The notes: generated by a model not told the origin, from the sequence alone. A stretch of DNA of 64,000 nucleotides from a virus (IMGVR_UViG_3300032324_000909:64001-128000), one strand, 5' to 3'; counted from the stretch's first letter, positions 11,685 to 54,668 are shown. Made by a program: numbers and translations.

Positions 11685-11723
11685 ATTTATTTGAATTACA
11701 ATAGGTATTAATCTATAATAAAC

Positions 11724-13300: not shown

Positions 13301-14382
13301 AATCAAACTCAAGTCAATCCGTATTAGCATCCTTTCTAAAGAGCACGAAGGGCGAACACTATAACTTTGAAGACGAAAAAATTTTTAACGTATCTACAGG
13401 CTCACTCCTCTTGGATTCAGAGATGGGAGGATCGTTAGAAGTTCCAGCAATTTTACGTTTTACTGGCGTAAGTGGTGGTGGAAAAACCAGTTCCGCTCTT
13501 CTTATTATGAAGAATTTCCTAGATACGGTACCAAAGGGTAAGGGTTTTCTAGTTAAAGCAGAAGGAAGGCTTAACTCTAATGTAAAAAATGTATCTGGAG
13601 TTAAGTTTGTAGACAAGGCCGAAGATTGGGTTGATGGAACTTGCTTCGTATTGCGTACTAATATTTATGAAAATGTTGCAAGTATTATCTTGGAATTAAT
13701 TAAGAATAATCCAGACGAATCTAGATATTATTTTTTAATTGATAGCATGGATGCGCTTATCGCTAAAAACGATGCCGCCAAGGGCTTTGAAGATAGTCAA
13801 AAAGTCGCCGCTGGAGCAGTTATTAGTTCGCATTTTCTAAAAATGATCATGTTGCCACTATCAACTTTTGGACATGTTTGCGCGCTAATCTCACAGGTGC
13901 GTTCTAATGTTCAAATTAATCCGTACGCTAAAACAGACCCAAAACTTACAAATAGTTCTGGTGGCAATGCTCTACAGCATTATGCTGATTGGATTTTCGA
14001 GTTCCAACCTAGATATAAAGCAGACCAGATAGTTGAAGATGGAAAAATTATTGGCCATTGGGCAAAAATTCTTCTCCGAAAGACCACAAACGAGAAGGAA
14101 GGAACTGAAATATTGTACCCAATTCGCCATGGTAGAACTGGTGGAAATAGTATTTGGATAGAATATGAAGTATCCGATATGTTAATTCAATGGGGCTTTG
14201 CAAAAAAGGCTGGTGCTTGGATCAATCTTGATTCTAAATTAATAGACGAAGTCTCAAAAGAGACTGGGCAAGCAGTACCAAGTACAATTCAAGGAATGGA
14301 AAAGTTAAGAACTTTCTTGGAAGAAAATAAAGAAATTTGTCTTTACTTATTCAATAAGTTCAAGGGCGCACTAGCAAAATAA
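13282..14382 (+). CDS. recA: RecA/UvsX-like recombinase
   Basis: STGSLLLD, Walker A GVSGGGKTS, LIDSMDAL, SQVR, SGGNALQH. Confidence 0.85.
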   Translation: MAKEEVKSNSSQSVLASFLKSTKGEHYNFEDEKIFNVSTGSLLLDSEMGGSLEVPAILRFTGVSGGGKTSSALLIMKNFLDTVPKGKGFLVKAEGRLNSNVKNVSGVKFVDKAEDWVDGTCFVLRTNIYENVASIILELIKNNPDESRYYFLIDSMDALIAKNDAAKGFEDSQKVAAGAVISSHFLKMIMLPLSTFGHVCALISQVRSNVQINPYAKTDPKLTNSSGGNALQHYADWIFEFQPRYKADQIVEDGKIIGHWAKILLRKTTNEKEGTEILYPIRHGRTGGNSIWIEYEVSDMLIQWGFAKKAGAWINLDSKLIDEVSKETGQAVPSTIQGMEKLRTFLEENKEICLYLFNKFKGALAK

Positions 14383-29608: not shown

Positions 29609-29656
29609 ATATTGATTTTTATTAATTAAAAGTGTAATAATATATACCATAATTCT

Positions 29657-30958
29657 ATGCCACTTCCTAGCCCCAAAAAACAAGAAAAGCGTTCTGAGTT
29701 CGTATCACGTTGTATTGGCGACGACCAAACAGCTAAAGACTTTCCAGACCAAAAGCAAAGAATTGCTATCTGCTATACGCAGTGGGACAGTGCAAAAAAA
29801 GAAGCAACCGCAGTAGTAGGCAGTGGTGATAATGAAGTTTTATTTTCCGCCCAAAAAACTTATGGGGGCAAAAAGCGTAGTGAATTAAAAAATAGTGATT
29901 TCCTATATCCAAACGAAAGAAGTTTCCCCATCGTAACACCAGCTGATGTTAAGGATGCTGTTAGTAGTTTTGGAAGTAGTAAGGGGAAGGATTACAATGA
30001 TTTTAAGCGTAGACTAGTAAAAAAGGTAAGATCAAGAGGTGCTGACTTTGTAAAAGCACTTCCCCAGTCAATTAAGGATGAGTATAAAATCAAAGCCTCT
30101 GAAGATACCATTGAAGACTATCAAGCTGAATTTCTCGGTATGTCGCTATCTTCATTGAAATCAATTAAAGCTAGGATTGACTCTATTTTCATGGCATTGG
30201 AAGCTGACGAGAACGCCAAATATAACTTAACAGAGCCTTGGCTACAGGGGAAAATAGCCATTATTGATGACAATCTTAAGGATGTTGCTGATTACATACT
30301 ATTTACAGACGAATCCGACGAAGATGAAACTGAATCGGAAACAGAAAACGAGGACACCATGTACACCATGGACACCATGGAGACAGAAGATATAGAGGAA
30401 ACAGAAAATGAATCCGGCGAAGAAACCGAGAACGAAACTGAAGAATATATGACCGCAGAAGATCTTACGGTTGATAATCTTTATATTCCAGAAGAGAGCG
30501 AATATGTAAGTAATGAAGAAATTGCCCTTAATGAGGCGGATACGTTTCAATACGACATCGCAAAAGAAAGACCCGGTCTTTGGGAGAATATAAGACGCAA
30601 GAAAAAAAGAGAGGGGAAAAATTATAAACCAGCCAAGGTTGGAGATAAAGACCGTCCCTCGCCAGAGGCTTGGGAAAAAGCTCAAGGCGCTGAATACCAA
30701 GGCAGTAAAGTTACATTAAATAGGCCATTCAGAACTCCAAATGGCCCCAAAAAATTTGCGGTGTATACTAAAAATGAAAGTGGTAATGTTGTTATTGTAA
30801 GATTCGGTGACCCAAATATGGAAATTAAGCGCGACATACCACAGCGCAGAGAAAACTTTAGATCAAGACATAATTGTGACAATCCGGGTCCAAAATGGAA
30901 AGCAAGATACTGGTCATGCCAGTGGTCTTGGTCGCCTAGTAAGAAGGTTGGCGCTTAA
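29657..30958 (+). CDS. multi-module phage protein, putative virion/head-associated
   Basis: Modules MPLP..FVSRC..QRIAICY, RSFPI, acidic tract, PGLWENI, AEYQG..VTLNRP..RFGDPNM..RHNC..ARYWSC; GTGTAA at 29632. Confidence 0.6.
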   Translation: MPLPSPKKQEKRSEFVSRCIGDDQTAKDFPDQKQRIAICYTQWDSAKKEATAVVGSGDNEVLFSAQKTYGGKKRSELKNSDFLYPNERSFPIVTPADVKDAVSSFGSSKGKDYNDFKRRLVKKVRSRGADFVKALPQSIKDEYKIKASEDTIEDYQAEFLGMSLSSLKSIKARIDSIFMALEADENAKYNLTEPWLQGKIAIIDDNLKDVADYILFTDESDEDETESETENEDTMYTMDTMETEDIEETENESGEETENETEEYMTAEDLTVDNLYIPEESEYVSNEEIALNEADTFQYDIAKERPGLWENIRRKKKREGKNYKPAKVGDKDRPSPEAWEKAQGAEYQGSKVTLNRPFRTPNGPKKFAVYTKNESGNVVIVRFGDPNMEIKRDIPQRRENFRSRHNCDNPGPKWKARYWSCQWSWSPSKKVGA

Positions 30959-39775: not shown

Positions 39776-40672
39776 ATGAGTAAAATTATTGCCATAGGAG
39801 ACTTGCATAATCATTGGGCTCAAGCTCAATCGATTATTGACAAGTATATTGATACACACAAGATTGTTCTATGTGGTGACTATTGGGATGATTGGAATGA
39901 TACTGCTATTGATGCAGAACAAACAGCCCGATGGGTTAAACAATGTTTAGCTAATCCAAACATTATTATGCTCATGGGCAATCATGACATAAATTATGCC
40001 CATTTTAACCTAAGGCCCGGTTCCAGTCTTGGCAATCAGATCTATAATTGCTCAGGATACACCCCAGCCAAGGACGATGCTATCAATCGCATTATGACTA
40101 ATGATGATTGGGACAAGATAAAGCTTGCCCACAAAGAAAATGGTTTTTGGTTCTCTCATGCTGGGTTCCATCCTTTCTGGTTCTCTAGCCCTCCTTATGG
40201 AATGGATGATGAGATTATTGAGATAAAGCTCAAGAAGATTCAGAAGGCTATCGAGGATAGAGAGTTTAGTAATGAGCTTGGTGCTGCTGGAAGGTGTAGA
40301 GGTGGCATTCATCGAGTTGGTGGATTGCTTTGGAGGGATCAAATAAGGGAATCCTATACTGGTTCTTATTGGAATGATGAGTCTGGTATTAAGCAAGTAA
40401 GTGGTCATACCCCCATGCGAAATGGAATCGATGTTGAAGAGACTTCAAACAAAGGTCTTTGTATTGATATTGATTGTGGACTATCTCAGGCGCTTGAAAT
40501 CCTAGAAGATGGTACATATAATATTATTGACACTGGACTTGAGAACTTTTACAGAGCATCAGAAAGAAAGTTCGTTGAACAAGAAAAGAAGAATAAGGAA
40601 GAACAGAAGAAGAAATATCTCTATAACCTTGGAGCATATGATGACATCTATAACAAACTAAACAAATCGTGA
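39776..40672 (+). CDS. calcineurin-like metallophosphoesterase
   Basis: GDLH, GDYWD, GNHD, SHAG, GHT. Confidence 0.85.
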   Translation: MSKIIAIGDLHNHWAQAQSIIDKYIDTHKIVLCGDYWDDWNDTAIDAEQTARWVKQCLANPNIIMLMGNHDINYAHFNLRPGSSLGNQIYNCSGYTPAKDDAINRIMTNDDWDKIKLAHKENGFWFSHAGFHPFWFSSPPYGMDDEIIEIKLKKIQKAIEDREFSNELGAAGRCRGGIHRVGGLLWRDQIRESYTGSYWNDESGIKQVSGHTPMRNGIDVEETSNKGLCIDIDCGLSQALEILEDGTYNIIDTGLENFYRASERKFVEQEKKNKEEQKKKYLYNLGAYDDIYNKLNKS

Positions 40673-40866
40673 AAACTATTAGAATGGAAGTAGAATTAAC
40701 TTATGATAATTATATTATGCATGAGAATAATTCGGATGAGATTAAATGGTTCTACAAAGACATTTTAGAAAAGAAAGTATGTGAAGATGGATCTCCTAAT
40801 TTAATTTTACATTCTAATGAAATAGGTGATGAGGTTGGTCTTATTAAAGTATTAAAAATTTTATGA
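40669..40866 (+). CDS. hypothetical protein
   Basis: GTGA/ATGA coupling on both sides. Confidence 0.55.
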   Translation: MKTIRMEVELTYDNYIMHENNSDEIKWFYKDILEKKVCEDGSPNLILHSNEIGDEVGLIKVLKIL

Positions 40867-41222
40867 AGAAGATACTAAAACCAAAACAGATCGAGGAAGC
40901 AATTTACTTCTCAGACTTTACAGGAGAACCTTTTGATGCTAGGTTCAGACATCCTCCTGTAGAGCTTAAAATGAATTTTAATTACGGATCAAAGTATGAT
41001 GGGTCTGAAATTAATTTGCACTTATCTGATAAAGATATGGAGCCTATTTTAGATCTTATTCAATCTAAGCTAAATCCAGATTTCAAGAAGAGTTTGCAAC
41101 AAGATATTACAGAAAATACTCTAGAATTTGATAACGCCGTGGATTCAAAAGACCCAATAATGTGTGATTATTATATCTCATGCTATAATCTCTTTAAAAA
41201 GCTTTTAGGTAATGGTGAATAA
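40863..41222 (+). CDS. hypothetical protein
   Basis: Intact coupled ORF. Confidence 0.6.
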   Translation: MKKILKPKQIEEAIYFSDFTGEPFDARFRHPPVELKMNFNYGSKYDGSEINLHLSDKDMEPILDLIQSKLNPDFKKSLQQDITENTLEFDNAVDSKDPIMCDYYISCYNLFKKLLGNGE

Positions 41223-41259
41223 GCTTGACTAATCATTTAAGGTTCTCTATTATAAGCAG

Positions 41260-41682
41260 ATGAACAGGCCAGTTATAGCATTTGACTTCGACTATACTTT
41301 AGCCATTGAAGAAGTGTCTGGAGGATGGATTGCTGTAGGTACAGGTGTTCTAAAGCCTATTCAAAAGATTATTGATATGGTTCTAGAGAAGGATAGAGAG
41401 GGGTTTGATATACATGTGGTTACCTATAGAAAAAAAGAAGATATCCCAGAGGTAGAAGAGTTTGTAAAGAAGCACAACCTACCTATTAAGGGTATTCATA
41501 GTACATCAGGAAAATCTAAGATTCCTATTCTAAAGAAGCTCAATTGTACTTTGATGGTTGATGATCAGGTAGAAGTCTGTACAGCCTGTATCATGAATGA
41601 TATTCCCTGTTTGCTTGTTGATCATGGATTCTCTGGAACAAATAATGTTGTAGCAGATAGAATTGACAAAATTAAAGTTTAG
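41260..41682 (+). CDS. HAD-superfamily phosphatase
   Basis: FDFDYTL, VVTYR, K, VDD. Confidence 0.75.
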   Translation: MNRPVIAFDFDYTLAIEEVSGGWIAVGTGVLKPIQKIIDMVLEKDREGFDIHVVTYRKKEDIPEVEEFVKKHNLPIKGIHSTSGKSKIPILKKLNCTLMVDDQVEVCTACIMNDIPCLLVDHGFSGTNNVVADRIDKIKV

Positions 41683-41720
41683 GCTTGAAGTGTTCTAAAA
41701 ATTCCTATAGTATAAAAACA

Positions 41721-42404
41721 ATGACCACAAAAGCACAAGCTAGAAAGAATCTTAAGAAGGCTGTTAAAGCCTATAAAGAGAAAGTTCGCCAACCTGTTAC
41801 TGTTGAGCTTCAGGAAGAGCATATCCCAACTGTTCTGAAGGCATTGGAAGTGTATCAGCGCTTAAAACTTGGTCAGGTTAATATTGCCCTCGATGAAGCA
41901 TTTGGCTATTCATTGGCCTATGAAGACAAACAAGAGATTCATAATTGTGCTAGGAAGTATTTGTTCAAAGATACAGATTTAGAGAACAATCCTAATGTAT
42001 CCTATGGCATCTATAACCAAGAGAAGGTTGGTGATGCAACTATGGCCTATGAGATTTATAAGGTTCTAGGGAGGTACAAAGCTTTTAAGGACAATGATGG
42101 GTGGGCAGATTATACCAGAAGGTTTGATAAGCCTCATTCTCATACTGGAGTTCCTTTGCCTGTAGTTCAAGGAGCTATTGAGCATAAGAACTTTAAGATC
42201 CCTAAGAAGCTTTGGAAGAAAATTGCTAATGCTATTGAGAATAAGGACACAGCTGATTGGAGTGATATCTGGAAGAGTATTGACAAAGCTATGCCTAAGT
42301 TGCCAAGAGGTGAGAAGTCAGAGATCTTTGGTGGAGACTTTATCAGTGATGGGTATTATGTAAAGGTTCATAGTCCAATTAAGCCTAAAGAGGAGGAGAA
42401 GTAA
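41721..42404 (+). CDS. hypothetical protein
   Basis: Start reassigned to ATG 41721 after TTGAAG-17-TAGTAT. Confidence 0.65.
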   Translation: MTTKAQARKNLKKAVKAYKEKVRQPVTVELQEEHIPTVLKALEVYQRLKLGQVNIALDEAFGYSLAYEDKQEIHNCARKYLFKDTDLENNPNVSYGIYNQEKVGDATMAYEIYKVLGRYKAFKDNDGWADYTRRFDKPHSHTGVPLPVVQGAIEHKNFKIPKKLWKKIANAIENKDTADWSDIWKSIDKAMPKLPRGEKSEIFGGDFISDGYYVKVHSPIKPKEEEK

Positions 42405-42405
42405 T

Positions 42406-42753
42406 ATGATTGAACCAGTAATTGACATTGATGGATATCCAACTGAAGAGACTGTAGAGTTTCTTGAACATTGGCAGAACTTTAAAGATGCTAAAGAAGC
42501 AATGGACTTTGCTTTGAAGGCATTAAAGAAGCTGTGCTATGCAACAGTGAAGCAAGAAAACAATTATATCTATATTGCAACTGGTGGGTGGAGTGGCTGT
42601 GAAGATATTATTAGAGCAATGAAGAAGAATTTTTATTGTAGTAATTTGCTTATTGCTTCATTATCTGGTGGTGGTTATTATTATGCTGACCCTTTTATTG
42701 ATAATCTCAAGACTTATGACTTTAAAGTAACAGTAGCCTATAAGATTGACTGA
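42406..42753 (+). CDS. conserved-type phage hypothetical protein (TGGWSG motif)
   Basis: DGYPT and ATGGWSGCEDII motifs; TAATATG junction. Confidence 0.65.
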   Translation: MIEPVIDIDGYPTEETVEFLEHWQNFKDAKEAMDFALKALKKLCYATVKQENNYIYIATGGWSGCEDIIRAMKKNFYCSNLLIASLSGGGYYYADPFIDNLKTYDFKVTVAYKID

Positions 42754-42757
42754 TAAT

Positions 42758-42985
42758 ATGAATGACTCTATAGAACTAAAGAAAGATGAATGGTTGATGC
42801 CTAGAGTTTCAACTTATAATGTATATGATTTTCAAGCTATACAAAGAGCACCAGTGACTAAGAGATGGTATCAATTTTGGATACCAAAAGAGATGTTCAT
42901 TTACACAACTGTTGAGAAAAGAAAGAAGACAATTAAATTGCCTATAGTAAGGACTGATAGTGCCAACCTTGATGCATCCTTTTAA
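42758..42985 (+). CDS. hypothetical protein
   Basis: ATG 42758 after TGATAAT. Confidence 0.55.
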   Translation: MNDSIELKKDEWLMPRVSTYNVYDFQAIQRAPVTKRWYQFWIPKEMFIYTTVEKRKKTIKLPIVRTDSANLDASF

Positions 42986-42986
42986 T

Positions 42987-43541
42987 ATGAATGAATTTTT
43001 TAACTCTGAACCTTATATAGATAAAATCTATAACTGTACTTGTAGAGATTGTGGAAAGGAATTTACTATAAATGCTCAATGTCATCCTAAGACTGGTTTT
43101 CCTGTATCTTTTATTTCAAAGTATTGTGAAGAGTGTAATATGAAGCTAAGAGATGCTTTTAATACTACAATACCTATTAATGTCTCAATTACTAATACTA
43201 AAGTACCTCAAAAGAATGTAGAAGGTCTAGAAAATACAATTGAGACTTTGGCAACTAGTATTGTCAATGTTAAAGATGAGTTTGGAGCATTTAAGAAGCA
43301 TATTGAGCATGATATTGAACACAATAAAAATGTAGTAGAAGACAAGCTCTATAGTCACAATAAGAGAATTGATGATAATAAGCTCAACCTAGATGTAATC
43401 AAATCTACTCAAAATATGATCAATGAGAGACACTTTAATCATATTAAGAAATTAACAAGAGAATCTATGATTATGTTCTTTATGGTCATTCTGCTTTTTG
43501 TATTTGACTTAGCTACAATTTGGTGTTATATTAGGAAATAA
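42987..43541 (+). CDS. Zn-finger + coiled-coil + C-terminal TM protein
   Basis: CRDC...CEEC; C-terminal hydrophobic helix; ATG 42987. Confidence 0.6.
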   Translation: MNEFFNSEPYIDKIYNCTCRDCGKEFTINAQCHPKTGFPVSFISKYCEECNMKLRDAFNTTIPINVSITNTKVPQKNVEGLENTIETLATSIVNVKDEFGAFKKHIEHDIEHNKNVVEDKLYSHNKRIDDNKLNLDVIKSTQNMINERHFNHIKKLTRESMIMFFMVILLFVFDLATIWCYIRK

Positions 43542-43542
43542 T

Positions 43543-43827
43543 ATGATGACTCCTTATAAACCCAAACCATCACCAGAAGTTGTTGCTGCATCAAAGAGAT
43601 CAGCTATTAGAGAAGCTCTTTTAGAACTTTTAATTCAAGAGAAGAAAGCAGAGATTACTATTAGTTGTGGACTCAGAGCTTTGGATCAAATTCTCTTTAT
43701 GCCAGAACATATGAGAACTATGGGTGAAACATTTCTAGAAATTGCTGGATGTGTAATTCAAGTAGAAAGAGATTTTGAATTAGAACCTTGGAAAATTGTT
43801 TATAATGGAGATGTAATTTTTAATTGA
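43543..43827 (+). CDS. hypothetical protein
   Basis: TAATATG-coupled ORF. Confidence 0.6.
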   Translation: MMTPYKPKPSPEVVAASKRSAIREALLELLIQEKKAEITISCGLRALDQILFMPEHMRTMGETFLEIAGCVIQVERDFELEPWKIVYNGDVIFN

Positions 43828-43828
43828 T

Positions 43829-44296
43829 ATGAACAAAGAAGAACCCTGTAAAGAAATAATGTTACACAATACAACAGATGCTCAAGTATGGACTGATGAG
43901 TTCATTAAGACATTTAGAAAGTTATATCCTCTTATAGGAGATGCTTATATAGCTCTATCACATTTTGATGACTTTAGAGATTGGGTCTTTGGTTGGTTCT
44001 GTAATGCTATTCAAACTGCAATTGTTTTGACTAATGCTCAAAGAGATAAGAGATATGTTTATATTCTTCAGAGTAATAGTGGAGCAATTGTAAATGTTTG
44101 GAATAATGGTTTTGAACCATCTGAAGATGAGTTAGATGAAGCATATGCAGTACATCTTGGAAGACATGCTCTCTGTGATGGTAAGAAGCATAGTGCAGCA
44201 ACTAACTGCACTCTTTATAGATGGAACAAATATGAAGGACTTGAGCATTGGAATGGAAAGGCTGTAGCTCAAACCATATACAACTGGGTAGAATAA
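43829..44296 (+). CDS. hypothetical protein
   Basis: TGATATG-coupled; DAQVW..EF...GWF.NA motif. Confidence 0.6.
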   Translation: MNKEEPCKEIMLHNTTDAQVWTDEFIKTFRKLYPLIGDAYIALSHFDDFRDWVFGWFCNAIQTAIVLTNAQRDKRYVYILQSNSGAIVNVWNNGFEPSEDELDEAYAVHLGRHALCDGKKHSAATNCTLYRWNKYEGLEHWNGKAVAQTIYNWVE

Positions 44297-44297
44297 T

Positions 44298-44732
44298 ATG
44301 AATGCAGAAGAATATTTAAAAAATAGAATTAGGGAACTTCAAATTGAAGTTGAAAAGCTCAGTAAAGAGAATAAACAACTAAAAGGCTTTAGAACTAATG
44401 CTGACAACTATCTTTGTGAATTAGCTGAGTCAGATTTTACAGAGAAGTATTGGGACAATAGAAAATCTAAGAACAATGAGTGGTTTGATTATAACAGAGC
44501 AAAAGCCAGAATCATTGAAGGTATGCTCTATGAAGAAATTGCTAGAGAATTAGGATCACTTACTAAATGCTGGGCTGGTGATAATAATGGTATGGTAGCT
44601 GGTACAATGAGTGATAAGAAGAACTGTAGATGTAGAGCTTGTATTGCTTTAAACAAATTAAATTACTTGACTCATAGAAAAGAAAAGCCAGAATGGATGT
44701 CAGATTATAACTGGAATATGACTAGAGATTAA
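44298..44732 (+). CDS. hypothetical coiled-coil protein with CRCxxC
   Basis: TAATATG-coupled ORF. Confidence 0.6.
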   Translation: MNAEEYLKNRIRELQIEVEKLSKENKQLKGFRTNADNYLCELAESDFTEKYWDNRKSKNNEWFDYNRAKARIIEGMLYEEIARELGSLTKCWAGDNNGMVAGTMSDKKNCRCRACIALNKLNYLTHRKEKPEWMSDYNWNMTRD

Positions 44733-44733
44733 T

Positions 44734-45150
44734 ATGAACAGAGAAATTAGAAAACTAACTAAAAAGATTGATGAGCTTCAAAAGCAAATCAATTACCAGA
44801 ATGAATGTATTATGGATCAGTCTATGATTATTCAAAAGTTAACTGAGAAGCTTGTAGTCATTCCAACCTATCCATCTACTCCAAGTATTGATCCTCATTT
44901 TGGAGTAGATATTCCTTATGTTCCATCTACTCCAAGTATTGATCCTCATTTTGGAGTAGATATTCCTTATGTTCCATGTAAAGGACCAGATTGTGAAAAC
45001 AGAACAACAACTCCTGTAACACATACATCCTATGATGGCACAAAGACTACTTTGCCAGTCACATTACCAGAAAAATGGCAGATGCCTAAAGCAGGATCAG
45101 TAACGGAAGGGTCTTCAGGATCTATGAGATACAATCAAACTTCTTTTTAA
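44734..45150 (+). CDS. hypothetical protein with internal 17-aa duplication
   Basis: PSTPSIDPHFGVDIPYV x2. Confidence 0.6.
   Translation: MNREIRKLTKKIDELQKQINYQNECIMDQSMIIQKLTEKLVVIPTYPSTPSIDPHFGVDIPYVPSTPSIDPHFGVDIPYVPCKGPDCENRTTTPVTHTSYDGTKTTLPVTLPEKWQMPKAGSVTEGSSGSMRYNQTSF
44871..44977. repeat. perfect 51-bp tandem duplication containing an 11-bp inverted repeat
   Basis: 44871-44921 equals 44922-44972; ATCTACTCCAA...TTGGAGTAGAT in each unit. Confidence 0.9.
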
Positions 45151-45151
45151 T

Positions 45152-45409
45152 ATGCATAAGAAAGATTACAAGATTGGGTCGTTTAAATTTCTTCAAGCAG
45201 GGAGTCATTTTGACTATGCTCAAGTATCTAACAAGAAAGGAGAAGTTATCTCAATATTTTTAGATCCAAGAGATGATACTTGGTATTTACTTCATGATTC
45301 GAACACAAAATTTAATGTTGTGAACTTGAATAGGTTTGTTGAAGAGCCATTCTATAGATATAAGAAGGATCAAAGAGCAAAAGAGGCTCTACAGGAGTTT
45401 AATTCTTGA
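45152..45409 (+). CDS. hypothetical protein
   Basis: TAATATG-coupled ORF. Confidence 0.55.
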   Translation: MHKKDYKIGSFKFLQAGSHFDYAQVSNKKGEVISIFLDPRDDTWYLLHDSNTKFNVVNLNRFVEEPFYRYKKDQRAKEALQEFNS

Positions 45410-45440
45410 CATCTCCTCCTAAAGAATATAGAATAAGATT
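45406..45440 (+). promoter_or_regulatory. sigma70 promoter, leaderless geometry
   Basis: TTGACA-17-TAGAAT-6-ATG. Confidence 0.8.
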
Positions 45441-45635
45441 ATGAATGAATACAGTATCCGTAACGCAGAACAGTTTTTAGAAGATCTAAACAATGCAACT
45501 ATTGAAAAGTTATATTTTGAAACAAAAAATAAAGATTATTATGAAACACCAGATTGGTTGCAAGAAAGATATAATCAAGCCATGCAAAATCTTGGTAGGT
45601 GGTTGGTAAAAAACGACCTTGACATCTCCTCCTAG
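45441..45635 (+). CDS. hypothetical protein
   Basis: Own promoter. Confidence 0.6.
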   Translation: MNEYSIRNAEQFLEDLNNATIEKLYFETKNKDYYETPDWLQERYNQAMQNLGRWLVKNDLDISS

Positions 45636-45653
45636 AGCATGTGGAATAAAAGC

Positions 45654-45809
45654 ATGAAAGAAAAGAAAGTCAAATTCCTTTTAGGACAAGGTTGTATTAT
45701 CATCGAAACAACCGAAGATACAACCGTTTTGCGGGACAAACACGGCAATACCGTAAAGGTTGACCAATTCGGTAAAGTTCTATGGTATCCAGTTGACAAA
45801 CCGCACTAA
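45654..45809 (+). CDS. 51-aa hypothetical protein (not in ORF track)
   Basis: MKEKKVKFLLGQGCIIIETTED...; TTGACA at 45619, 35 nt upstream. Confidence 0.55.
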   Translation: MKEKKVKFLLGQGCIIIETTEDTTVLRDKHGNTVKVDQFGKVLWYPVDKPH

Positions 45810-45827
45810 TTCATTTAGAATAAGACT
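45793..45827 (+). promoter_or_regulatory. sigma70 promoter, leaderless geometry
   Basis: TTGACA-17-TAGAAT-6-ATG. Confidence 0.8.
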
Positions 45828-46037
45828 ATGCAAATAGAAATTAATGATGAACATTTAGATTTGGCATTTGCTAAGTCATTGGCTGAGACTATTGAGATTC
45901 TTTCAAATAATACTAAAAATCTCAAAAAGATAAAGAATCCAAGGCCTTATATTCTTGAAGACATTGATGAGAATGAAAAAGATATCGAAGCATTGAAGAG
46001 AACCTACAAATACTATACAGGAGAAAAATATGAGTGA
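45828..46037 (+). CDS. hypothetical protein
   Basis: Own promoter. Confidence 0.6.
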   Translation: MQIEINDEHLDLAFAKSLAETIEILSNNTKNLKKIKNPRPYILEDIDENEKDIEALKRTYKYYTGEKYE

Positions 46038-46347
46038 CCTTAAAGAAGATCTAGAAGATGATAGGCCAAAATATAAAATAGTCTATGATGAGATGTCCTG
46101 TTATAATTGGGAGTTTAGTATCAATGGTGTCTGGAGAAGTGGGGAGGTAGATGAGGGCGTTAAGCAACCCGAAGAAGATGACGAACTTCTTGATTATCTT
46201 TTATTAAAACTTAAAAAAGAAATTAAAAGAGGTACTTGTGATTTTAAAAGTTTAGTGGAATGTTTTCAGTATGATGATTATGAATCAGATAAAGGCTACT
46301 GTGAGACTTGCGGTCATCATGGAGGAACAACAACTTGGAATATATGA
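46030..46347 (+). CDS. hypothetical acidic protein with C-terminal CETCG
   Basis: Coupled ORF. Confidence 0.6.
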   Translation: MSDLKEDLEDDRPKYKIVYDEMSCYNWEFSINGVWRSGEVDEGVKQPEEDDELLDYLLLKLKKEIKRGTCDFKSLVECFQYDDYESDKGYCETCGHHGGTTTWNI

Positions 46348-46523
46348 ACGACGAACAAACGCCCCATGTATTAGTAGAAGGCGAATGGGTTCCTGTATCT
46401 AAAACAGAATTCGTTGGCATCTCTGAAGATTTATTTGGTCAAGATGTATACGAGTTTAAATATCTTGACAAGTGTTACTCTTCTCATGTAATATTAAAAT
46501 ATGAAAGTAAAACAACTAATTGA
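46344..46523 (+). CDS. hypothetical protein (resembles 51489..51656)
   Basis: ATGA-coupled start 46344; V.VE..W.P.S...FK..DK...S.V shared pattern. Confidence 0.55.
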   Translation: MNDEQTPHVLVEGEWVPVSKTEFVGISEDLFGQDVYEFKYLDKCYSSHVILKYESKTTN

Positions 46524-46719
46524 AATGCTACAGCAGTTTGATCCCGAGATGCTTGTTATGGTACAAGGCTATGAGGGAGGAATTGATGCTCCAGAAAAGC
46601 TTTATCAGACTGCTATTAGACTAAATGTCCATGAAGAGTGGTATTATGGAAAGCATGAAGTTCATCATGTAACTGACACAGAGAAAGCAGATTGTGAAGC
46701 TGTTATAATTCCTAGGTAA
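46501..46719 (+). CDS. phage hypothetical protein (MKVKQLIEML...GYEGG type)
   Basis: TTGACA-18-TAATAT-6-ATG. Confidence 0.65.
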   Translation: MKVKQLIEMLQQFDPEMLVMVQGYEGGIDAPEKLYQTAIRLNVHEEWYYGKHEVHHVTDTEKADCEAVIIPR

Positions 46720-46762
46720 TTTTCTTGCCCAGCTATAAAAATCTCTATATACTTTAAAGATT

Positions 46763-47440
46763 ATGAAAGATTTATTTTACAAGTCTGTTAAAATTTCCAG
46801 TACAGATTATGACGTTCTGTTTTGGGGCTGTATGCACTATGGACATGATCCCAAGTGGGATGTCCCTATCTGGAAGACAAGGGGTTATAATAGTTCCAGA
46901 GAGCATGACGAGGGACTAATAGAGAATTGGAATAAAAAGGCAAATAAAAACACTATAGGGTTTCTTCTCGGTGATACAATTTTTGGGTATGATGCAGACG
47001 AGCGACTACTAGAGCTTTTTCGAAGACTAGAGTATAAGACCCTGTATGTACTGCCCGGCAATCATCAGGCTGGCTATAAGCAGATTTTAGACAGGTGCGA
47101 GAACAATACTTTCTACATGAGCAATATTTGGGATCATAATGATAAAAGGGAAATTATATTTGTCCCTAACTATCTAGAGACGTTTGTGAATGGTCAGCCT
47201 ATTGTTCTAAGTCATTTTCCTATACTGTCTTGGAATGGAGCAGGCAAGGGGGCATACCATCTTTTCGCGCACGTTCACGGTAATCTCAATAGATCAGAAC
47301 TTGGAAGGATGTATCTAAAGACAGGATTGAACTATGAAGTTTCTGTTGAGAATTGCCCTAGTCCTATTACATTTGGTGAACTGAGGGCCGAGATGATAAA
47401 GAGAACACAAAGTTGTCCAGATCATCATAATGACACTTGA
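46763..47440 (+). CDS. calcineurin-like metallophosphoesterase
   Basis: CMHYGH, NWN, LGD, GNH, SHFP, HVH. Confidence 0.75.
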   Translation: MKDLFYKSVKISSTDYDVLFWGCMHYGHDPKWDVPIWKTRGYNSSREHDEGLIENWNKKANKNTIGFLLGDTIFGYDADERLLELFRRLEYKTLYVLPGNHQAGYKQILDRCENNTFYMSNIWDHNDKREIIFVPNYLETFVNGQPIVLSHFPILSWNGAGKGAYHLFAHVHGNLNRSELGRMYLKTGLNYEVSVENCPSPITFGELRAEMIKRTQSCPDHHNDT

Positions 47441-49169: not shown

Positions 49170-49778
49170 ATGTCACACTATTGCCTAAACGCTTCTACTC
49201 CTCAACACCTGTACGGATATGTCGCCGCAGACATACTGCATGGGCTGGATGGACGCAAAGGCCTAGAGCCATGCGTGATAATCGGGGTCACTAGCATTCC
49301 ATCTAGAGCATTGCACTTCTCCATACTATGCGAATCAGGCGCACAATGGGCGAGGATACCATTGCACAAGTTATACCACGAAGAGCCAGAGAACGGCGTA
49401 GAACCCCACCCAATCACACACCTGCAAATGTGGGATTGCCATGGCTGGGATTTCGCAGTGTGCAGATACGAGTATTTGCGCGAGATGTCATGCCATTACC
49501 TTGACCGAGATGGCAACAGGGTTCCGGCCAGCTATTGGTTCACCTTGGATCATACCGATAATGGATTCAGTCAGTATCCATCAGAGCATAAATGCTATCA
49601 TCTCCTGCTACTGGCAGATGGGTCAGGCCAGATAGCCGCACAGCCTAACAACCGAATCGTCTGGCACGACGACTCTTTTGTGAAAGATGGATCAATTCCC
49701 AAGTATAAGGTTATGCCGCCGGTAACTTGGCATTCAGAAATTGGACGCAACGCACAGGACACCGCGTTTACTCAATAA
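49170..49778 (+). CDS. conserved-type phage hypothetical protein, GC-rich
   Basis: LQMWDC, SEHKC, AQPNNR motifs. Confidence 0.7.
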   Translation: MSHYCLNASTPQHLYGYVAADILHGLDGRKGLEPCVIIGVTSIPSRALHFSILCESGAQWARIPLHKLYHEEPENGVEPHPITHLQMWDCHGWDFAVCRYEYLREMSCHYLDRDGNRVPASYWFTLDHTDNGFSQYPSEHKCYHLLLLADGSGQIAAQPNNRIVWHDDSFVKDGSIPKYKVMPPVTWHSEIGRNAQDTAFTQ

Positions 49779-50504: not shown

Positions 50505-51131
50505 ATGAAGAACATTTTCCTTATTGCAGATCTCCACTTTGGGGACGAGGATATGTGTAGTTTAATAAAAGAAGATGGGCACCCCTTACGCCCATTTAAG
50601 AGTATAGAAGAGCATGATACTACATTGATTGAGAACTGGAACAAAGTTGTCAATGATGGTGACAAAGTCTATGTTCTTGGTGATGTTGCACAAAATAAAA
50701 AAGATCTAGAGAAGTTCACTGAGCTGCATGGTAAGAAGATTCTCATTAAGGGAAACCATGATATCTATCAGATGAAAGAGTATGCGAAGTATTTCAAAGA
50801 CATTCGTGGCACTCATCGTTTAGAAAACGGTATTCTCATGAGTCATATCCCAATTCATCCTAGCTCCTTTGGTAAGGCTCATAAGGTGAATGTGCATGGT
50901 CACATCCATGATAAAGTTGTAAAGATAAATGAACCTGATGTAATTTTAGACAGATCTGTTACATACAATATTAAACCAGATCCAAGATACTTCTGTGTTT
51001 CTTGTGAACATATAAACTATACCCCAATGGAGCTTGGTGCTATTGAGATAGAAGTTTTTGGATTTGATTCTCGTGCAAAAGCTTTGGATGAACTTGCGGC
51101 ACAAGCCCAAGAGCTTAATATGGGATATTAA
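50505..51131 (+). CDS. calcineurin-like metallophosphoesterase
   Basis: ADLHFG, NWN, LGD, GNHD, SHIP, HGHIH. Confidence 0.85.
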   Translation: MKNIFLIADLHFGDEDMCSLIKEDGHPLRPFKSIEEHDTTLIENWNKVVNDGDKVYVLGDVAQNKKDLEKFTELHGKKILIKGNHDIYQMKEYAKYFKDIRGTHRLENGILMSHIPIHPSSFGKAHKVNVHGHIHDKVVKINEPDVILDRSVTYNIKPDPRYFCVSCEHINYTPMELGAIEIEVFGFDSRAKALDELAAQAQELNMGY

Positions 51132-51132
51132 T

Positions 51133-51492
51133 ATGAACAATCATAATAAAATTATTGAATTAAATAAGATTTGGTATAACACTATTTGTGGCGATTACCA
51201 TAAGGATCGTGATTGTCATTTTTATATTATTACAGATTATCAGTATGGTGAAAAAGTTGTTTATACAGTCCAACATGCTGGTTACATCAACCATGATTAC
51301 GAAGATACAGATTGGGGGACTATAGAAGAAGCTGAAGTAGAACTTATTAAAGTTATATCTAAATCTATCATCAATGAAATTGATTGGTATTTGGAACATT
51401 ATGGAGATCCAGATTGGGATCAGCATCCGAGATACGACAAGGATGACTTGGAAGAGATTATAACTAGGGTAATGCTTATAACAAGTAAATGA
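51133..51492 (+). CDS. hypothetical protein (HKDRDCH motif)
   Basis: ATG 51133 at TAATATG junction. Confidence 0.6.
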   Translation: MNNHNKIIELNKIWYNTICGDYHKDRDCHFYIITDYQYGEKVVYTVQHAGYINHDYEDTDWGTIEEAEVELIKVISKSIINEIDWYLEHYGDPDWDQHPRYDKDDLEEIITRVMLITSK

Positions 51493-51656
51493 ATAGTGTA
51501 AAGATAGCATCAGTTTGGGTAGAAGATATTCAGCAATGGATTCCCTTGTCGCAGATTACCGTTATACAAAGATATACCCATGAAGGCAAAAACTGCATCC
51601 AGTTTAAGCACGAAGATAAAATACTTGAGAGTTATGTAGAGTATAAAGAGGTGTAA
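51489..51656 (+). CDS. 55-aa hypothetical protein (not in ORF track)
   Basis: MNSVKIASVWVEDIQQWIPLSQ...; ATGA-coupled. Confidence 0.5.
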   Translation: MNSVKIASVWVEDIQQWIPLSQITVIQRYTHEGKNCIQFKHEDKILESYVEYKEV

Positions 51657-51664
51657 ATAATAAT

Positions 51665-52486
51665 ATGAATAAATATACACTGCCCGAATCTGTTAACCTT
51701 GAAGAGATGAAGGCCTCTTTCAAGCAACATGGTTATGCTGTAGCAAGAGGCCTCTTTTCTGAAGCTGAAGTAGAAGAAATTAAAAATACCTTTGATCGAA
51801 TTGCAAAGAATGGTACTATTGAAGATTATTTTTATCCTGTCTCTAAAGATGAATCAAACGGAGATCCTTTAAAAGAATTTCCGAGAGTGATGCAGCCACA
51901 TCGTTTTGACTCAGTATCACGCAAAAATCTTGTCCATCCAGCTGTTCTTTTTTGCTTGAAAGAGCTTGTGCAAGAAGATGTACTTGCTGCTCAAAGTATG
52001 TTTTACTACAAGCCACCGGGCTCTAGAGGACAAGCAATGCATCAAGATAATTTTTATCTTTTAGTTGAACCACAAACATGTGTTGCGGCGTGGACTGCTA
52101 TCGATGATGCAGATCCAGAAAATGGTGGAATGTATCTAGTAGCAGATACGGCAGAAGAGGAAATTATATGCCCTAAAGAAGCCAATGCAACCGAGTCATT
52201 CACAACACATCTTGTACCAACCCCAAAAGGGAAAAAGGCTGTTCCTTGTATTATGAAATCAGGTGATACATTATTCTTTAATGGTAGTTCAATTCATGGC
52301 TCAGGACCAAATAGATCCAAAGATAGATTTCGTAGATCCTTTATCTGCCATTATGTTCCAAAATCCACCCAGCGCATTAGCAAGCATTATCTACCCCTGA
52401 TAACACCTGAAGGGGAAGATATTGTGATCGATGCTAATAATAGTGGTGGGCCCTGTGGTAGTACATGGGAGGGTGGACAGCATTAA
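51665..52486 (+). CDS. PhyH-family 2OG-Fe(II) dioxygenase
   Basis: QSMFYYKPPG, HQD, WTAIDDA..ENG, HGS.PNRS..FRR. Confidence 0.88.
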   Translation: MNKYTLPESVNLEEMKASFKQHGYAVARGLFSEAEVEEIKNTFDRIAKNGTIEDYFYPVSKDESNGDPLKEFPRVMQPHRFDSVSRKNLVHPAVLFCLKELVQEDVLAAQSMFYYKPPGSRGQAMHQDNFYLLVEPQTCVAAWTAIDDADPENGGMYLVADTAEEEIICPKEANATESFTTHLVPTPKGKKAVPCIMKSGDTLFFNGSSIHGSGPNRSKDRFRRSFICHYVPKSTQRISKHYLPLITPEGEDIVIDANNSGGPCGSTWEGGQH

Positions 52487-52690
52487 ATGCAACATAATGA
52501 TATTCATGTTATTGGTCATGTAACAGTGGGTCTATTAGCATTTGGAATGCTGATGTTCTTTTGGATGATATCAAAAGGAGTTAAGAAGGTAAAGAAGAAA
52601 GGCGAAAAAGGAACCAAAAGACTTAGAAAGTTTAATCTTTGGCTAAAGAAATTTGAAGAGTTCAAGAGGAGTTGGCACTATGAGATATAA
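52487..52690 (+). CDS. small single-TM protein
   Basis: Hydrophobic helix followed by basic tail. Confidence 0.5.
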   Translation: MQHNDIHVIGHVTVGLLAFGMLMFFWMISKGVKKVKKKGEKGTKRLRKFNLWLKKFEEFKRSWHYEI

Positions 52691-52952
52691 AAATATAATT
52701 ATATTATGTATATTACTGGCGACAAACACGTATGCATACGAAAAGCCAGAATTTAAATTAATTGACTATATTGGCGCTTACCATGATAGTAGAGACGTTA
52801 TATAGGATATTAATAGGTTACAATCCAAGTACCATCTTAAAGTATCCAAGAAAAAAGACTGCCAATTAGGTGGTATTATCAGTAGGGATTTTAAGTTTCA
52901 TGGGGGTAATCAACCCATTGTTGCCCAAACTGCACTAATGTTTGCATTTTAA
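52680..52952 (+). pseudogene. exported protein interrupted by one in-frame TAG
   Basis: Signal peptide MRYKNIIILCILLATNTYA, TAG at 52803-52805, same frame continues 48 codons to ...ALMFAF*. Confidence 0.55.
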
Positions 52953-52989
52953 TATTGACATAGCTATCATATATCAGTAACATATTTAT

Positions 52990-53811
52990 ATGTACAACTG
53001 GTTTAACTACTCACGGATTAAGAGGCAACTTGAGAACCAATTAGAGGAAAACGCAAGGCTAAGGGGGGAAAATAAGACCCTAGAAGATATTCTCAAGGCC
53101 ATCCAAGAAGATGGAACTACAGAACACAATAATGCAATAAATCTTAGAGAGTCAGTAGCACATTTAAGAGAAGAGGCAGAGAAGTTTTATAATGAAAATG
53201 TACAGCTTACCAAGGAAGTTAGAGATCTCAGGCATCTAAAGACTGAGAACGTTGAGTTGATTGAGAGGCTTCGGAAGGAAGGAAATAGTTATGGCATAAC
53301 CTTTAATGAGGCTAAGACCCAAATTATTCAGAATGATTATAAGAAGTGCGCCCAACAGAGGGATGAGTATAAGCATCAACTCAATGCTGCTAATAAAGAG
53401 ATTGAAGCATTAAAATTAATGCATGGGGAAAGAGAAAAGAAATTAAAAACATATAATAAGAGTTTACAATCTCAGATCACAAGTCTTAAAGAAGACAATG
53501 AATCTCAAAAGCATCCTATGTATCCGCTTCATTGGGGTGGATATGATAAAAACATTATTGATCTTGTCGAGTCCGAATTGAATAACCAAGACCACGTAGA
53601 AGGCGAGTGGATGTCCACATGGTGTTATAAATGTCAACATATAAAAGAACAATGCAAGTGTGATAAATATTTAAATATACAAGATTTGCCGAAGACATTT
53701 CCTAACGAGTTTCAAGAGCCAACGTGGGAAGAGGCGGCAAGCGATTTAGCTTTAAAATTAGTAAAGCTAGAAAAGAAAATACAAGACTTGACACGTCTTC
53801 CAAAAAAGTAA
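52990..53811 (+). CDS. coiled-coil hypothetical protein
   Basis: Heptad repeats; CxxC..CxC; promoter 35 nt upstream. Confidence 0.65.
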   Translation: MYNWFNYSRIKRQLENQLEENARLRGENKTLEDILKAIQEDGTTEHNNAINLRESVAHLREEAEKFYNENVQLTKEVRDLRHLKTENVELIERLRKEGNSYGITFNEAKTQIIQNDYKKCAQQRDEYKHQLNAANKEIEALKLMHGEREKKLKTYNKSLQSQITSLKEDNESQKHPMYPLHWGGYDKNIIDLVESELNNQDHVEGEWMSTWCYKCQHIKEQCKCDKYLNIQDLPKTFPNEFQEPTWEEAASDLALKLVKLEKKIQDLTRLPKK

Positions 53812-53824
53812 TATTATACATAAT

Positions 53825-54073
53825 ATGCCAACAGGAACATTAACTTTTAATTTGCCAGAAGAGCAATCAGACTTCAAGCTTGCATCCAATGCCACTAGCT
53901 GGTATTTGGTTGCTTGGGACATAGATCAATACCTAAGAGACAAGATCAAGTATCCAGAAGACACTGGAGACAATAAAGGAAAGTCCGATGAGTATTATGA
54001 AGCACTCGAAGAAGCTAGAAAAGAGTTTTGGGAGATCATGACACAAAGAGGTCTGGACTTTGATAATTGGTAA
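53825..54073 (+). CDS. phage hypothetical protein (L.FNLPEE type)
   Basis: TTGACA at 53788. Confidence 0.65.
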   Translation: MPTGTLTFNLPEEQSDFKLASNATSWYLVAWDIDQYLRDKIKYPEDTGDNKGKSDEYYEALEEARKEFWEIMTQRGLDFDNW

Positions 54074-54079
54074 TAATAT

Positions 54080-54286
54080 ATGAAACCTGAATGGGAATTT
54101 AGAAATGATAGTGAGGGTAATCTTGATGAGATTACCGCAGAAGATGTTCAGTTCTTTCATCTAGAAAGAATGGATAATGGTCATTGGTGGCTAGGCGTAA
54201 CTCTTCAGGATGGTTCTAGGATTACAGCCAATCTCATCTCTGATTTTAATAAAAGAATTAATTGTGTAGCATATAAAGAGGATTGA
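54080..54286 (+). CDS. hypothetical protein (HLERMD..WW motif)
   Basis: Intact ORF. Confidence 0.6.
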   Translation: MKPEWEFRNDSEGNLDEITAEDVQFFHLERMDNGHWWLGVTLQDGSRITANLISDFNKRINCVAYKED

Positions 54287-54317
54287 CACATCTTCCTAAA
54301 GAATATAGAATAAGATT
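54283..54317 (+). promoter_or_regulatory. sigma70 promoter, near-copy of 45406..45440
   Basis: TTGACA-17-TAGAAT-AAGATT-ATG. Confidence 0.8.
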
Positions 54318-54668
54318 ATGACAAAAGAACTCTTTGAAGAAATTATCTTAAAGCTTCAGCTAATGCATGAAAAGGGTCGAAAGACTTATGATCTTGGTAT
54401 TGACCTGATGGAGTATACTGAACCATATGAAAGGGTTATTGATGTCCTTTTGAAGTCTCATTTTAATAACGAACAAATTGGATGGATTGATTGGTATCTT
54501 TATGAAAGACCATCTCTATTAAAGAATGGAAAGCCTAACAAAGCTTATAAGGCAGTTGGTAAGAAGAAGGTAGAAATCTGTCACACTATTGATTCTCTTT
54601 GGGAGACCATTCAGGAATATACACCTCAAGCTGAATGGGACAAAAGATGGCCGGGGAGGGAAAAATAG
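54318..54668 (+). CDS. hypothetical protein
   Basis: Own promoter; WIDWYLYE motif. Confidence 0.65.
   Translation: MTKELFEEIILKLQLMHEKGRKTYDLGIDLMEYTEPYERVIDVLLKSHFNNEQIGWIDWYLYERPSLLKNGKPNKAYKAVGKKKVEICHTIDSLWETIQEYTPQAEWDKRWPGREK

Follow-up and report, generated by a model that had tools for sequence, protein, structure and literature searches.

The stretch of viral DNA described here, referred to as the window, is 64,000 nucleotides (nt) long and corresponds to G000:64001-128000, where G000 is the virus record IMGVR_UViG_3300032324_000909 (140,531 bp, 36.3% G+C). The window contains an array of small genes from part of which the dinucleotide CG (CpG) has been eliminated. By direct count there is no CG in the 3211 nt of 41892..45103, referred to below as the core. 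The core marks the extreme of a CG-purged domain within a hypervariable array of small accessory genes. The CGs that bound it, at 41891 and 45104, are separated by 3213 nt, a distance unmatched in the window or the rest of the 140,531-bp genome, where the next-largest gap is 505 nt, less by a factor of six. A preliminary description of the window had reported the absence of CG between these two positions and a second CG-free stretch near 41291-41786, and the count bears out both. It had also placed about eight genes in the larger stretch, which is correct if part of the gene for a conserved 227-amino-acid (227-aa) protein, six whole genes and most of the gene for a 138-aa protein are counted. 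The core and the features that define it are given below, with CG content expressed as the ratio of observed to expected (o/e) and genes taken as open reading frames (ORFs).

39776..47440, + strand: wider CG-poor domain of co-oriented small genes, per-gene CG o/e mostly 0-0.5
41290..41786: second stretch without CG (497 nt), between a TCGA-type CG at 41289 and a TCGC at 41787
41685..41720, + strand: conserved predicted cassette promoter TTGAAG..TATAGTATAAAA before the 227-aa gene, common to >20 loci with different upstream genes
41721..42404, + strand: 227-aa conserved cassette protein, likely start ATG 41721 and not TTG 41685 of the ORF list
42406-42753, 42758-42985, 42972-43541, 43543-43827, 43829-44296 and 44298-44732, + strand: six tightly abutting ORFan genes from ORF calling, 0 CG
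44734..45150, + strand: 138-aa ORFan; the right edge of the core lies inside this gene (ACGG at 45104)
45152..45409, + strand: 85-aa ORFan, last gene before the next strong promoter; 2 CG (TCGT and TCGA)

Depletion of CG in the Core

From base composition 86.6 CGs would be expected in the core, and from the window's own rate 69 (P ~1e-30). The CG o/e is therefore 0 in the core and 0.85 genome-wide. The G+C content of the core (33.5%) is the same as that of the flanking DNA, and the dinucleotides GC, CC and GG, which the preliminary description had found to be common, occur at normal frequency. The depletion was compared with two codon nulls for the nine genes between 41721 and 45409, which together contain 6 CG. 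When the same proteins are encoded with genome-wide codon usage, 103 +/- 8.6 CG are expected, and when the codons of these genes are shuffled among synonymous positions, 38 +/- 4.6 are expected with a minimum of 23. CpG thus lies far below the codon-shuffled expectation, the comparison that had been proposed as decisive in the preliminary description.

All three codon phases are affected. Of 50 arginine codons in the nine genes, 48 are AGR and 2 are CGC, and both CGC codons precede 41893, in agreement with the earlier statement that arginine is encoded by AGR throughout the core. NCG codons number 3/239, and a C-ending codon precedes a G-starting codon in 1/180 cases compared with 31% elsewhere. 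The arginine content of the nine genes is unchanged at 4.0%. Since arginine content is kept while the three codon phases are cleared, CG has been removed without touching the proteins, that is, by a synonymous purge. A cause at the level of tRNA or codons was rejected since CG across codon boundaries is cleared as fully as CGN and NCG codons. Within the core, TG (o/e 1.34), CA (1.13), CT (1.45) and AG (1.20) are all raised. An excess of TpG and CpA, which had been suggested as a check, is thus present, but it is accompanied by an excess of CT and AG, and the joint rise of TG, CT and AG is what synonymous replacement predicts.

The flanks of the core are graded and not abrupt. The CG o/e is ~0.4 at 39776-41222, ~0.1 at 41260-42404 and 0.1-0.3 at 44734-45409, and it is 0.2-0.6 at 45.4-47.4 kb and at 50.5-54.7 kb. 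The residual CGs of the left flank (39.8-41.9 kb) are enriched for TCGA (7/21). Outside the window, positions 1-22000 of the genome differ in composition, having 42-50% G+C and a CG o/e of 1.0-1.1, compared with 30-36% G+C in the rest of the genome.

Related Loci

Relatives were sampled through the 227-aa protein, which yielded three IMG/VR records (G001-G003) and 22 metagenome contigs, and for a second time through a different gene of the core, encoding 155 aa; the two genes yielded 29 related loci in all. Stretches of few or no CG on the kilobase scale (~1 to 7 kb) are present in 23 of the 29, in the same swap-prone array, and of the 22 metagenome loci to which the 227-aa gene led, 17 have a CG-poor block of at least 0.8 kb. 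Wherever a contig is long enough to pass beyond the array, the adjoining DNA is CG-normal and the switch is sharp, and no contiguous CG-poor block is longer than ~7 kb. In the two full-length records, G001 (218 kb) and G002 (130 kb), only the homologous small-gene array is depleted, with a 3.8-kb CG gap in G001 and several gaps of 1.2-2.1 kb, together ~14 kb, in G002. The rest of both genomes has an o/e of 0.8-0.9, so these two genomes are not globally CpG-free, a property for which the preliminary description had proposed to search. In the 42-kb fragment G003 (L022, L023), CG is scarce almost from end to end (o/e ~0.4) and scarcest at the array end.

The closer relatives found through the 155-aa gene (L054, L055) are CG-poor in the same way, whereas distant homologs of this gene (48-57% identity) lie in comparable small-gene arrays with ordinary CG (o/e ~0.7). 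The trait therefore belongs to a clade and a genome region and not to a gene family or to small-gene arrays generally. The distant homologs, from other uncultured phages (L048-L053), lie in 20-kb arrays of 50-60 small genes that are rich in YopX-domain proteins. The CG-poor regions contain 105 distinct ORFs with no more than one CG each, and therefore no single gene family explains the purge. About 85% of these ORFs have no PHROG match, and none of the 18 PHROG families matched is named as a known anti-restriction gene.

The arrays also contain DNA that has not been purged. Four genes of G002 that lie on the opposite strand within the array (L004:534-1349, 11567-12385 and 12909-14003; L005:10572-11291) are CG-normal, encode proteins of 239-364 aa without a Pfam match, and may be later-expressed genes or selfish insertions. 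The phage itself, an uncultured lake phage, is remote from cultured ones. A nucleotide search of the phage collection gave no match, and the DnaE-type polymerase is 25% identical to actinophage enzymes.

Selection against CG and Its Flanking Bases

Twenty-one CG-poor alleles of the 227-aa gene, 71-100% identical in nucleotide sequence, were compared at synonymous third positions that hold C or T. These positions are polymorphic in 21/36 cases before A, C or T but in only 2/19 cases before G (Fisher p = 6e-4), and the fraction of C at them is 0.26-0.43 before A, C or T compared with 0.027 before G. The positions preceding G stay free of C, and therefore CG-creating changes are still being removed while the alleles diverge in otherwise CG-normal genomes. 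The purge is maintained by ongoing purifying selection that acts on the DNA sequence itself; proteins, codons and tRNA use are not its target. The strong selection against CpG that was proposed in the preliminary description is thus supported by the allele polymorphism together with the codon nulls, and it is still acting. In CG-free alleles, the counterparts of CG are TG (7), CA (4), CT (5), TA (5), AA (4) and AG (3).

The CGs that survive follow a flank rule. After removal of duplicates, CGs were oriented on the coding strand, and those of CG-poor zones were compared with those of CG-normal DNA of the same loci (V, any base but T; B, any base but A).

TCGA: 28 in CG-poor zones, 172 in CG-normal DNA
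TCGB: 8 in CG-poor zones, 332 in CG-normal DNA
VCGA: 13 in CG-poor zones, 450 in CG-normal DNA
VCGB: 4 in CG-poor zones, 768 in CG-normal DNA

TCGA is in excess among the surviving CGs (p = 3.5e-14). Mutational input from the TG and CA precursors would be expected to give 13% TCGA, 47% half-sites and 40% VCGB, whereas VCGB makes up 7.5% of the CGs observed. Tolerance of CG is ~5-fold higher with a 5' T and likewise with a 3' A, and the two effects are equal (8 TCGB compared with 13 VCGA, p = 0.82) and multiplicative. Zones of intermediate CG depletion obey the same rule in a weaker form. Since a 3' A on one strand reads as a 5' T on the other, VCG is costly on each strand and TCG much less so, a symmetry that is expected for a protein reading duplex DNA and not for an effect on mRNA. 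The word that is selected against is VCG on either strand of duplex DNA, and TCGA is its main survivor. All NCGN contexts are depleted, including the non-palindromic ones, and the avoided word is not a defined site of 4-8 bp. A model of additive decay per strand underpredicts the VCGB deficit (p = 0.024 and 0.002), and a model of independent risk per site fits better. The rule also bears on an arginine codon at residue 23 of the 227-aa gene, which is CGN in 23/23 alleles covering it and CGA in 19 CG-poor alleles. In the alleles for which the flank was read (L001, L002), this CGA is preceded by GTT and the site is thus a TCGA; the CG is retained in every covering allele because the TCGA context is tolerated under the flank rule.

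Other short words are depleted in the same zones. Across the four phage records (G000-G003), the o/e of CATG is 0.41 in CG-poor, 0.71 in intermediate and 0.88 in CG-normal zones, and that of GGCC is 0.33, 0.65 and 0.94, respectively. CATG is the most under-represented 4-mer without CG (z = -7.4). Palindromic 6-mers without CG have a ratio of 0.82 in CG-free blocks compared with 0.96 in control DNA, and CTGCAG is absent. The depletion of CATG, GGCC and palindromes is a restriction-avoidance signature confined to the same region. The preliminary description was right that the depletion of CG is real, but it missed the VCG rule with its tolerated TCGA, the loss of CATG and GGCC, and the occurrence of the trait throughout a clade.

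Clustering of the surviving CGs at the 5' ends of transcripts was considered and rejected, since 14% of them lie within 200 nt of a predicted start compared with a background of 12%. Self-modification of the phage DNA by enzymes of the families tested was also rejected. The four phage records contain no methyltransferase of the C5 (PF00145), N4/N6 (PF01555), Eco57I/TaqI (PF07669) or Dam (PF02086) type, and no base-modification gene of the TGT/DpdA or ThyA-like kind was found in them. A search for a T7-type RNA polymerase gave no match, but the controls of that search matched nothing either.

Genes and Promoters of the Array

The array begins with a predicted metallophosphatase gene and extends beyond the core on both sides. 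Its remaining features are as follows.

39776..40672, + strand: 298-aa metallophosphatase at the start of the array, GDLHNH/GNHD motifs, NinI-like phosphatase PHROG, CG o/e 0.37
41225..41253, + strand: predicted sigma-70-like promoter TTGACT-17-TATTAT, ending 6 nt before ATG 41260
41260..41682, + strand: 140-aa HAD/PNK-phosphatase-like protein; 1 CG, a TCGA
45406..45434, + strand: repeated predicted cassette promoter TTGACATCTCCTCCTA..TAGAAT, recurring at 45619 and in variant form at 54283
45639..45809, + strand: 56-aa cassette behind the same promoter type, CG-normal (8 CG, o/e 1.27), an unpurged cassette within the array
50505..54668, + strand: second, milder CG-poor stretch in the same gene array, per-gene o/e 0.2-0.6

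The metallophosphatase gene is conserved in the relatives L025, G002 and L054, where it likewise lies at the left edge of the array. In addition to the HAD-type phosphatase, the array encodes two further phosphoesterases, a 5'-deoxyribonucleotidase and many ORFans. The 227-aa protein has no Pfam or PHROG match, an Atlas search gives only unnamed viral clusters (at 0.84), and the AlphaFold model of the protein has a pLDDT of 53. The six ORFans at 42406..44732 neither match Pfam above the cut-off nor belong to a named PHROG. The gene for the 138-aa ORFan contains an exact 51-nt tandem duplication (2.1 copies, 44871-44977) that doubles the 17-aa peptide PSTPSIDPHFGVDIPYV. Downstream of the CG-purged domain, a ferredoxin-like auxiliary gene (49170-49778, PHROG 3704) has 50% G+C in surroundings of 35% G+C. 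It is 68% identical to a gene on the 63% G+C contig L046, which was binned as Chthoniobacter, and on this similarity it could be derived from the host, providing a weak lead to Chthoniobacter as the host.

Several genes of the array are preceded by a near-consensus predicted sigma-70-type promoter that ends 5-8 nt before the ATG. Because the promoter at 41225..41253 ends 6 nt before its ATG, the mRNA would have almost no leader. A promoter-to-ATG module of ~40 bp, TTGACAYCTCCTCCTA..TAGAAT..ATG, is present at 45406-45445, 45619-45655 and 54283-54321, and transcripts from it would likewise be almost leaderless. With two mismatches or fewer allowed, each of the records G001-G003 contains 4 to 12 copies of this module before unrelated small genes. 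Stem-loop terminators are not evident in the array, as 3 terminator-like sites occur in 9.5 kb compared with 4.3 expected by chance. The possibility that the CG-free island represents a single operon was rejected because the CG-free blocks of relatives cover several promoters.

The gene content and order of the arrays vary among relatives, with exchanges at shared promoters. The same unit of promoter and gene is found behind different upstream genes, and the contig ends of relatives often fall within promoter repeats of the TTGACAYCTCCTCCTA type. Judging from these arrangements, the promoter copies are likely to be the joints at which cassettes recombine and are shuffled. Between genomes that are only 65-75% identical in their shared conserved genes, the DNA of the 227-aa gene is 86% identical. 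CG-free and CG-normal alleles of one gene family both occur, as do recombinants between them; for the 140-aa HAD/PNK-phosphatase-like gene, both kinds of allele are present in relatives. The existence of such recombinants explains why the left edge of the core (last CG at 41891) falls inside the 227-aa gene.

Comparison with Known Systems

Genome-wide avoidance of restriction sites in phages is established and has reportedly been surveyed by Rusinov et al. 2018, with palindromes as the avoided words. The array resembles such cases in that short palindromes are under-represented beyond the expectation from composition and codons. It differs from them in that classical avoidance is genome-wide and concerns the 4-6-bp sites of known enzymes, whereas here ~5% of the genome is involved and CG is avoided in all contexts but TCGA.

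Avoidance limited to part of a genome is known from phage T5, in which an EcoRI site or a CRISPR target has an effect only if it lies in the first-step-transfer DNA, and the absence of its sites has been proposed as the reason why the phage's own host-DNA nuclease spares that DNA (10.1101/866236). Among the small and mostly dispensable genes of the T5 pre-early DNA are those for the metallophosphatase A1 and a dNMP phosphatase (10.64898/2026.04.02.716235). Like the first-step-transfer DNA, the array is a block of a few kilobases of small, variable genes behind predicted host-type promoters (41225, 41685, 45406). It contains a metallophosphatase, a HAD protein, other phosphoesterases and a 5'-deoxyribonucleotidase, and this is a broad functional parallel without homology. 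As in the first-entering DNA of T5- and T7-type phages, sites that are present in the remaining genome are lacking from the array, and this is also true of G001 and G002. Unlike in T5, there is no evidence here of a terminal position, a terminal repeat or entry in two steps, and the avoided word is not a 6-bp site but a dinucleotide with a flank rule. The phage is unrelated to T5 and has no homology to the T5 pre-early proteins A1, A2 and Dmp, so that the likeness is at the level of broad families. Homology of the metallophosphatase to T5 A1 was considered and rejected, since no T5-like record was matched.

In Murciavirus, the motifs of the type I restriction system Mme2I matter only in the first-injected, hypervariable region (PMC12455610). 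The array resembles this leading region in that the location of motifs appears to decide the outcome and in that it is hypervariable and rich in accessory genes of the anti-defense type. The Murciavirus case concerns a single long bipartite type I motif and a known order of entry, whereas here kilobases of DNA have been cleared of VCG, CATG and GGCC, and no order of entry is established. The organization of the array is similar to that of the hyperplastic regions of T4-type phages, which contain promoter-early stem-loop (PeSL) cassettes (Arbiol et al. 2010, PMC2839356). In both, arrays of small ORFans are split by repeated sigma-70-like promoter modules (here TTGACAYCTCCTCCTA) that serve, here putatively, as recombination joints. 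Unlike in PeSL regions, terminator stem-loops are not evident here, and no purge of a dinucleotide has been reported for PeSL regions. Local suppression of CpG in a large DNA virus is also known from cytomegalovirus, in which the IE1 gene avoids CpG to evade the RNA sensor ZAP (PMC7498042). That case is confined to immediate-early genes and involves RNA sensing in a eukaryotic host, whereas the flank rule described here is strand-symmetric and points to duplex DNA.

Possible Causes of the CG Depletion

Any explanation has to account for selection on duplex DNA, for a signal that is dominated by CG and includes palindromes, for a modest cost per site, for a swap-prone array driven by host-type promoters, and for the absence of protective modification genes of the families tested. 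Motif avoidance limited to one part of a phage genome has one established setting, DNA that is exposed before the rest, and it is on this precedent that we favor a nuclease race. By analogy with the first-step-transfer DNA of T5 or the leading regions of T7-type phages, the array may be early-exposed DNA that avoids a CG-reading nuclease in a race with the neutralization of that nuclease. We hold this reading tentatively, at a little under an even chance, because the genome ends are not placed, the arrays contain CG-normal cassettes and no such short-word enzyme is known. Under this proposal, the DNA of the island would stay intact, and would probably be expressed, while one or more short-word DNA endonucleases, the main one reading CG, act in the cell. 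The rest of the genome (CG o/e 0.8-0.9) would at that time either not yet be in the cell or already be protected by the products of early genes. Every remaining site would represent a small independent risk of a cut during exposure, which would explain both the graded, multiplicative pattern and the tolerance of unpurged cassettes. The nuclease could be the host's, and thus an undescribed CG-directed defense, or the phage's own host-DNA-degrading enzyme, as proposed for T5. A cassette entering the domain by recombination would lose its CGs with time, and exchange with CG-normal alleles would produce sharp edges, some of them inside genes. The preliminary description had suggested the footprint of an undescribed CpG-directed defense. 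The signal does lie on the duplex and not in codons or protein, and a CpG-directed agent acting on DNA, of which none has been described, is the simplest cause. The further suggestion in that description, that the block is exposed to attack before protection sets in, is plausible.

Several observations weigh against the nuclease race. The virus record is circular and closes on itself with a 123-bp overlap, which we take to be the largest k-mer of the assembler (JGI MEGAHIT settings), and nothing places the domain at a first-entering end or in a terminal repeat. GC skew merely follows transcription, and the ends of the G001 contig lie in repeated promoters and not in a shared terminus. (A 643-aa ORF had been taken as a candidate terminase, but it had no match, and a Terminase_6N search also found nothing.) We know of no restriction enzyme with a 2-3-bp CG word, and none was found in the literature searched. 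The only lead to a host is the 68%-identical gene on the 63%-G+C contig of the Chthoniobacter metagenome-assembled genome, and the metallophosphatase has no BLAST-level similarity to any T5-like phage record. CG-normal cassettes occur inside the arrays, namely 45639-45809 of the window and the four opposite-strand genes of G002, which would be awkward if a single cut were lethal and fits only with a small risk per site. CG-normal replication genes lie behind the same type of promoter, so that an early promoter is not sufficient to define the purged set.

The mosaic fits mechanisms that act gene by gene somewhat better than it fits a nuclease race. One such mechanism, which we consider fairly unlikely, is a CG-dependent block of transcription, in which a factor that binds or marks DNA would silence CG-containing templates. 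This factor could be the phage's, shutting off a CG-rich host chromosome as T4 Alc acts against transcription of cytosine-containing DNA, or it could be a host silencer; genes needed in the meantime would be CG-free, and the remaining genes would be read later with the phage's own sigma-like factor. The strand-symmetric flank rule agrees with recognition on duplex DNA, the cost per site is graded, and CG-normal cassettes and opposite-strand genes would be accommodated without stepwise entry. A sigma-like ORF adjoins the structural genes; this 230-aa ORF (G000 29270-29962) weakly resembles sigma-70 region 2 (E = 6e-6, narrowly missing the cut-off) and may be a late sigma factor of the phage. 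However, no CG-reading factor of this kind is known or was identified here, the loss of CATG, GGCC and 6-bp palindromes resembles nuclease avoidance and not the effect of a single factor, the intergenic DNA within the blocks is CG-free too, and CG-normal genes have the same type of promoter. If the cost were instead imposed on RNA, early transcripts would avoid an endoribonuclease or RNA sensor that cuts or binds CG, either a host enzyme of the toxin type or a phage shut-off enzyme, much as the cytomegalovirus IE1 gene evades ZAP or mRNAs without ACA escape the MazF RNase, which cleaves at ACA. A benefit per transcript fits the mosaic and the CG-normal opposite-strand genes, ordered entry of DNA would not be needed, and the purged genes all lie on one strand behind host-type promoters. 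The specificity for the sense strand that this would entail is not seen, as the 5'-T and 3'-A effects, which concern complementary positions, are equal (TCGB 8 compared with VCGA 13, p = 0.82). Furthermore, the words lost alongside CG are palindromes, the surviving CGs are not concentrated at the 5' ends of transcripts, and no CG-specific bacterial RNase is known to us. The flank symmetry and the palindrome co-depletion thus disfavor the RNA version of a gene-by-gene mechanism, which we judge to be unlikely.

The two weakest readings dispense with selection in the present genomes. Cassettes might have been imported from a phage lineage that is CG-free throughout because of a CG-restricting host and might since have been re-equilibrating slowly, as the preliminary description had in part suggested. 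The exchange of cassettes at shared promoters, the higher identity of the 227-aa gene (86%) than of conserved genes (65-75%) and the sharp edges, some inside genes, are all in keeping with import. Nevertheless, every related contig of sufficient length has CG-normal DNA beside the block, with the change to normal coming within ~7 kb, and CG-creating changes are still removed among alleles that live in mosaics. The residual CGs also depart from mutational input (VCGB 7.5% compared with 40% expected), and the flanks grade by context and not by count alone, so that import is improbable. The other reading is mutation pressure without selection on the word, through CpG methylation and deamination of 5-methylcytosine, also raised in the preliminary description, or through a context-specific cytosine deaminase. 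The raised TG (1.34) and CA (1.13) of the core would be expected from it, and an enzyme with a preference for the -1 base that acts on each strand would yield a flank rule on each strand. However, a single region is affected in a genome that replicates as one molecule, and none of the four DNA methyltransferase families tested is represented in the four phage records. The continuing removal of CG-creating changes among alleles also speaks against plain deamination. CT and AG are as much in excess as TG and CA, NCG has become NCT as often as NCA, CG is replaced by CT, TA, AA or AG as often as by TG or CA, and CGN has become AGR with arginine content unchanged. Together with the underprediction of the VCGB deficit by additive per-strand decay (p = 0.024 and 0.002), these findings make mutation pressure very improbable.

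Significance for Phage Biology

No published description of CpG-free islands in phages was found in the literature searched, and to our knowledge a purge at the dinucleotide level with a flank rule on each strand is more extreme than any known cellular CpG depletion. Three findings are new: selection is shown to be still at work, the surviving CGs obey a strand-symmetric VCG/TCGA flank rule, and CATG and GGCC are lost in graded fashion along with CG. Region-limited avoidance reveals which phage DNA meets host nucleases and when, information that is hidden in genome averages; the overall CG o/e of 0.85 looks unremarkable. The purge also marks more than 100 ORFan families as having probable takeover or anti-defense functions, making them candidates for the first-acting genes. 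CG-free windows with TCGA-biased survivors could serve as markers of early or leading regions when uncultured phages are annotated.

The implied specificity, VCG with TCG spared, matches no described restriction or defense system and provides a search image for a new defense or for a phage weapon against the host. It is possible, though rather less than probable, that an undescribed DNA-targeting enzyme of freshwater bacteria or phages reads approximately CG, recognizing VCG on each strand and blind to TCG, and acts in the first minutes of infection. If so, this enzyme would compel an entire clade of phages to do without CG in the genes needed first, and the flank rule would be the first fingerprint of its specificity.

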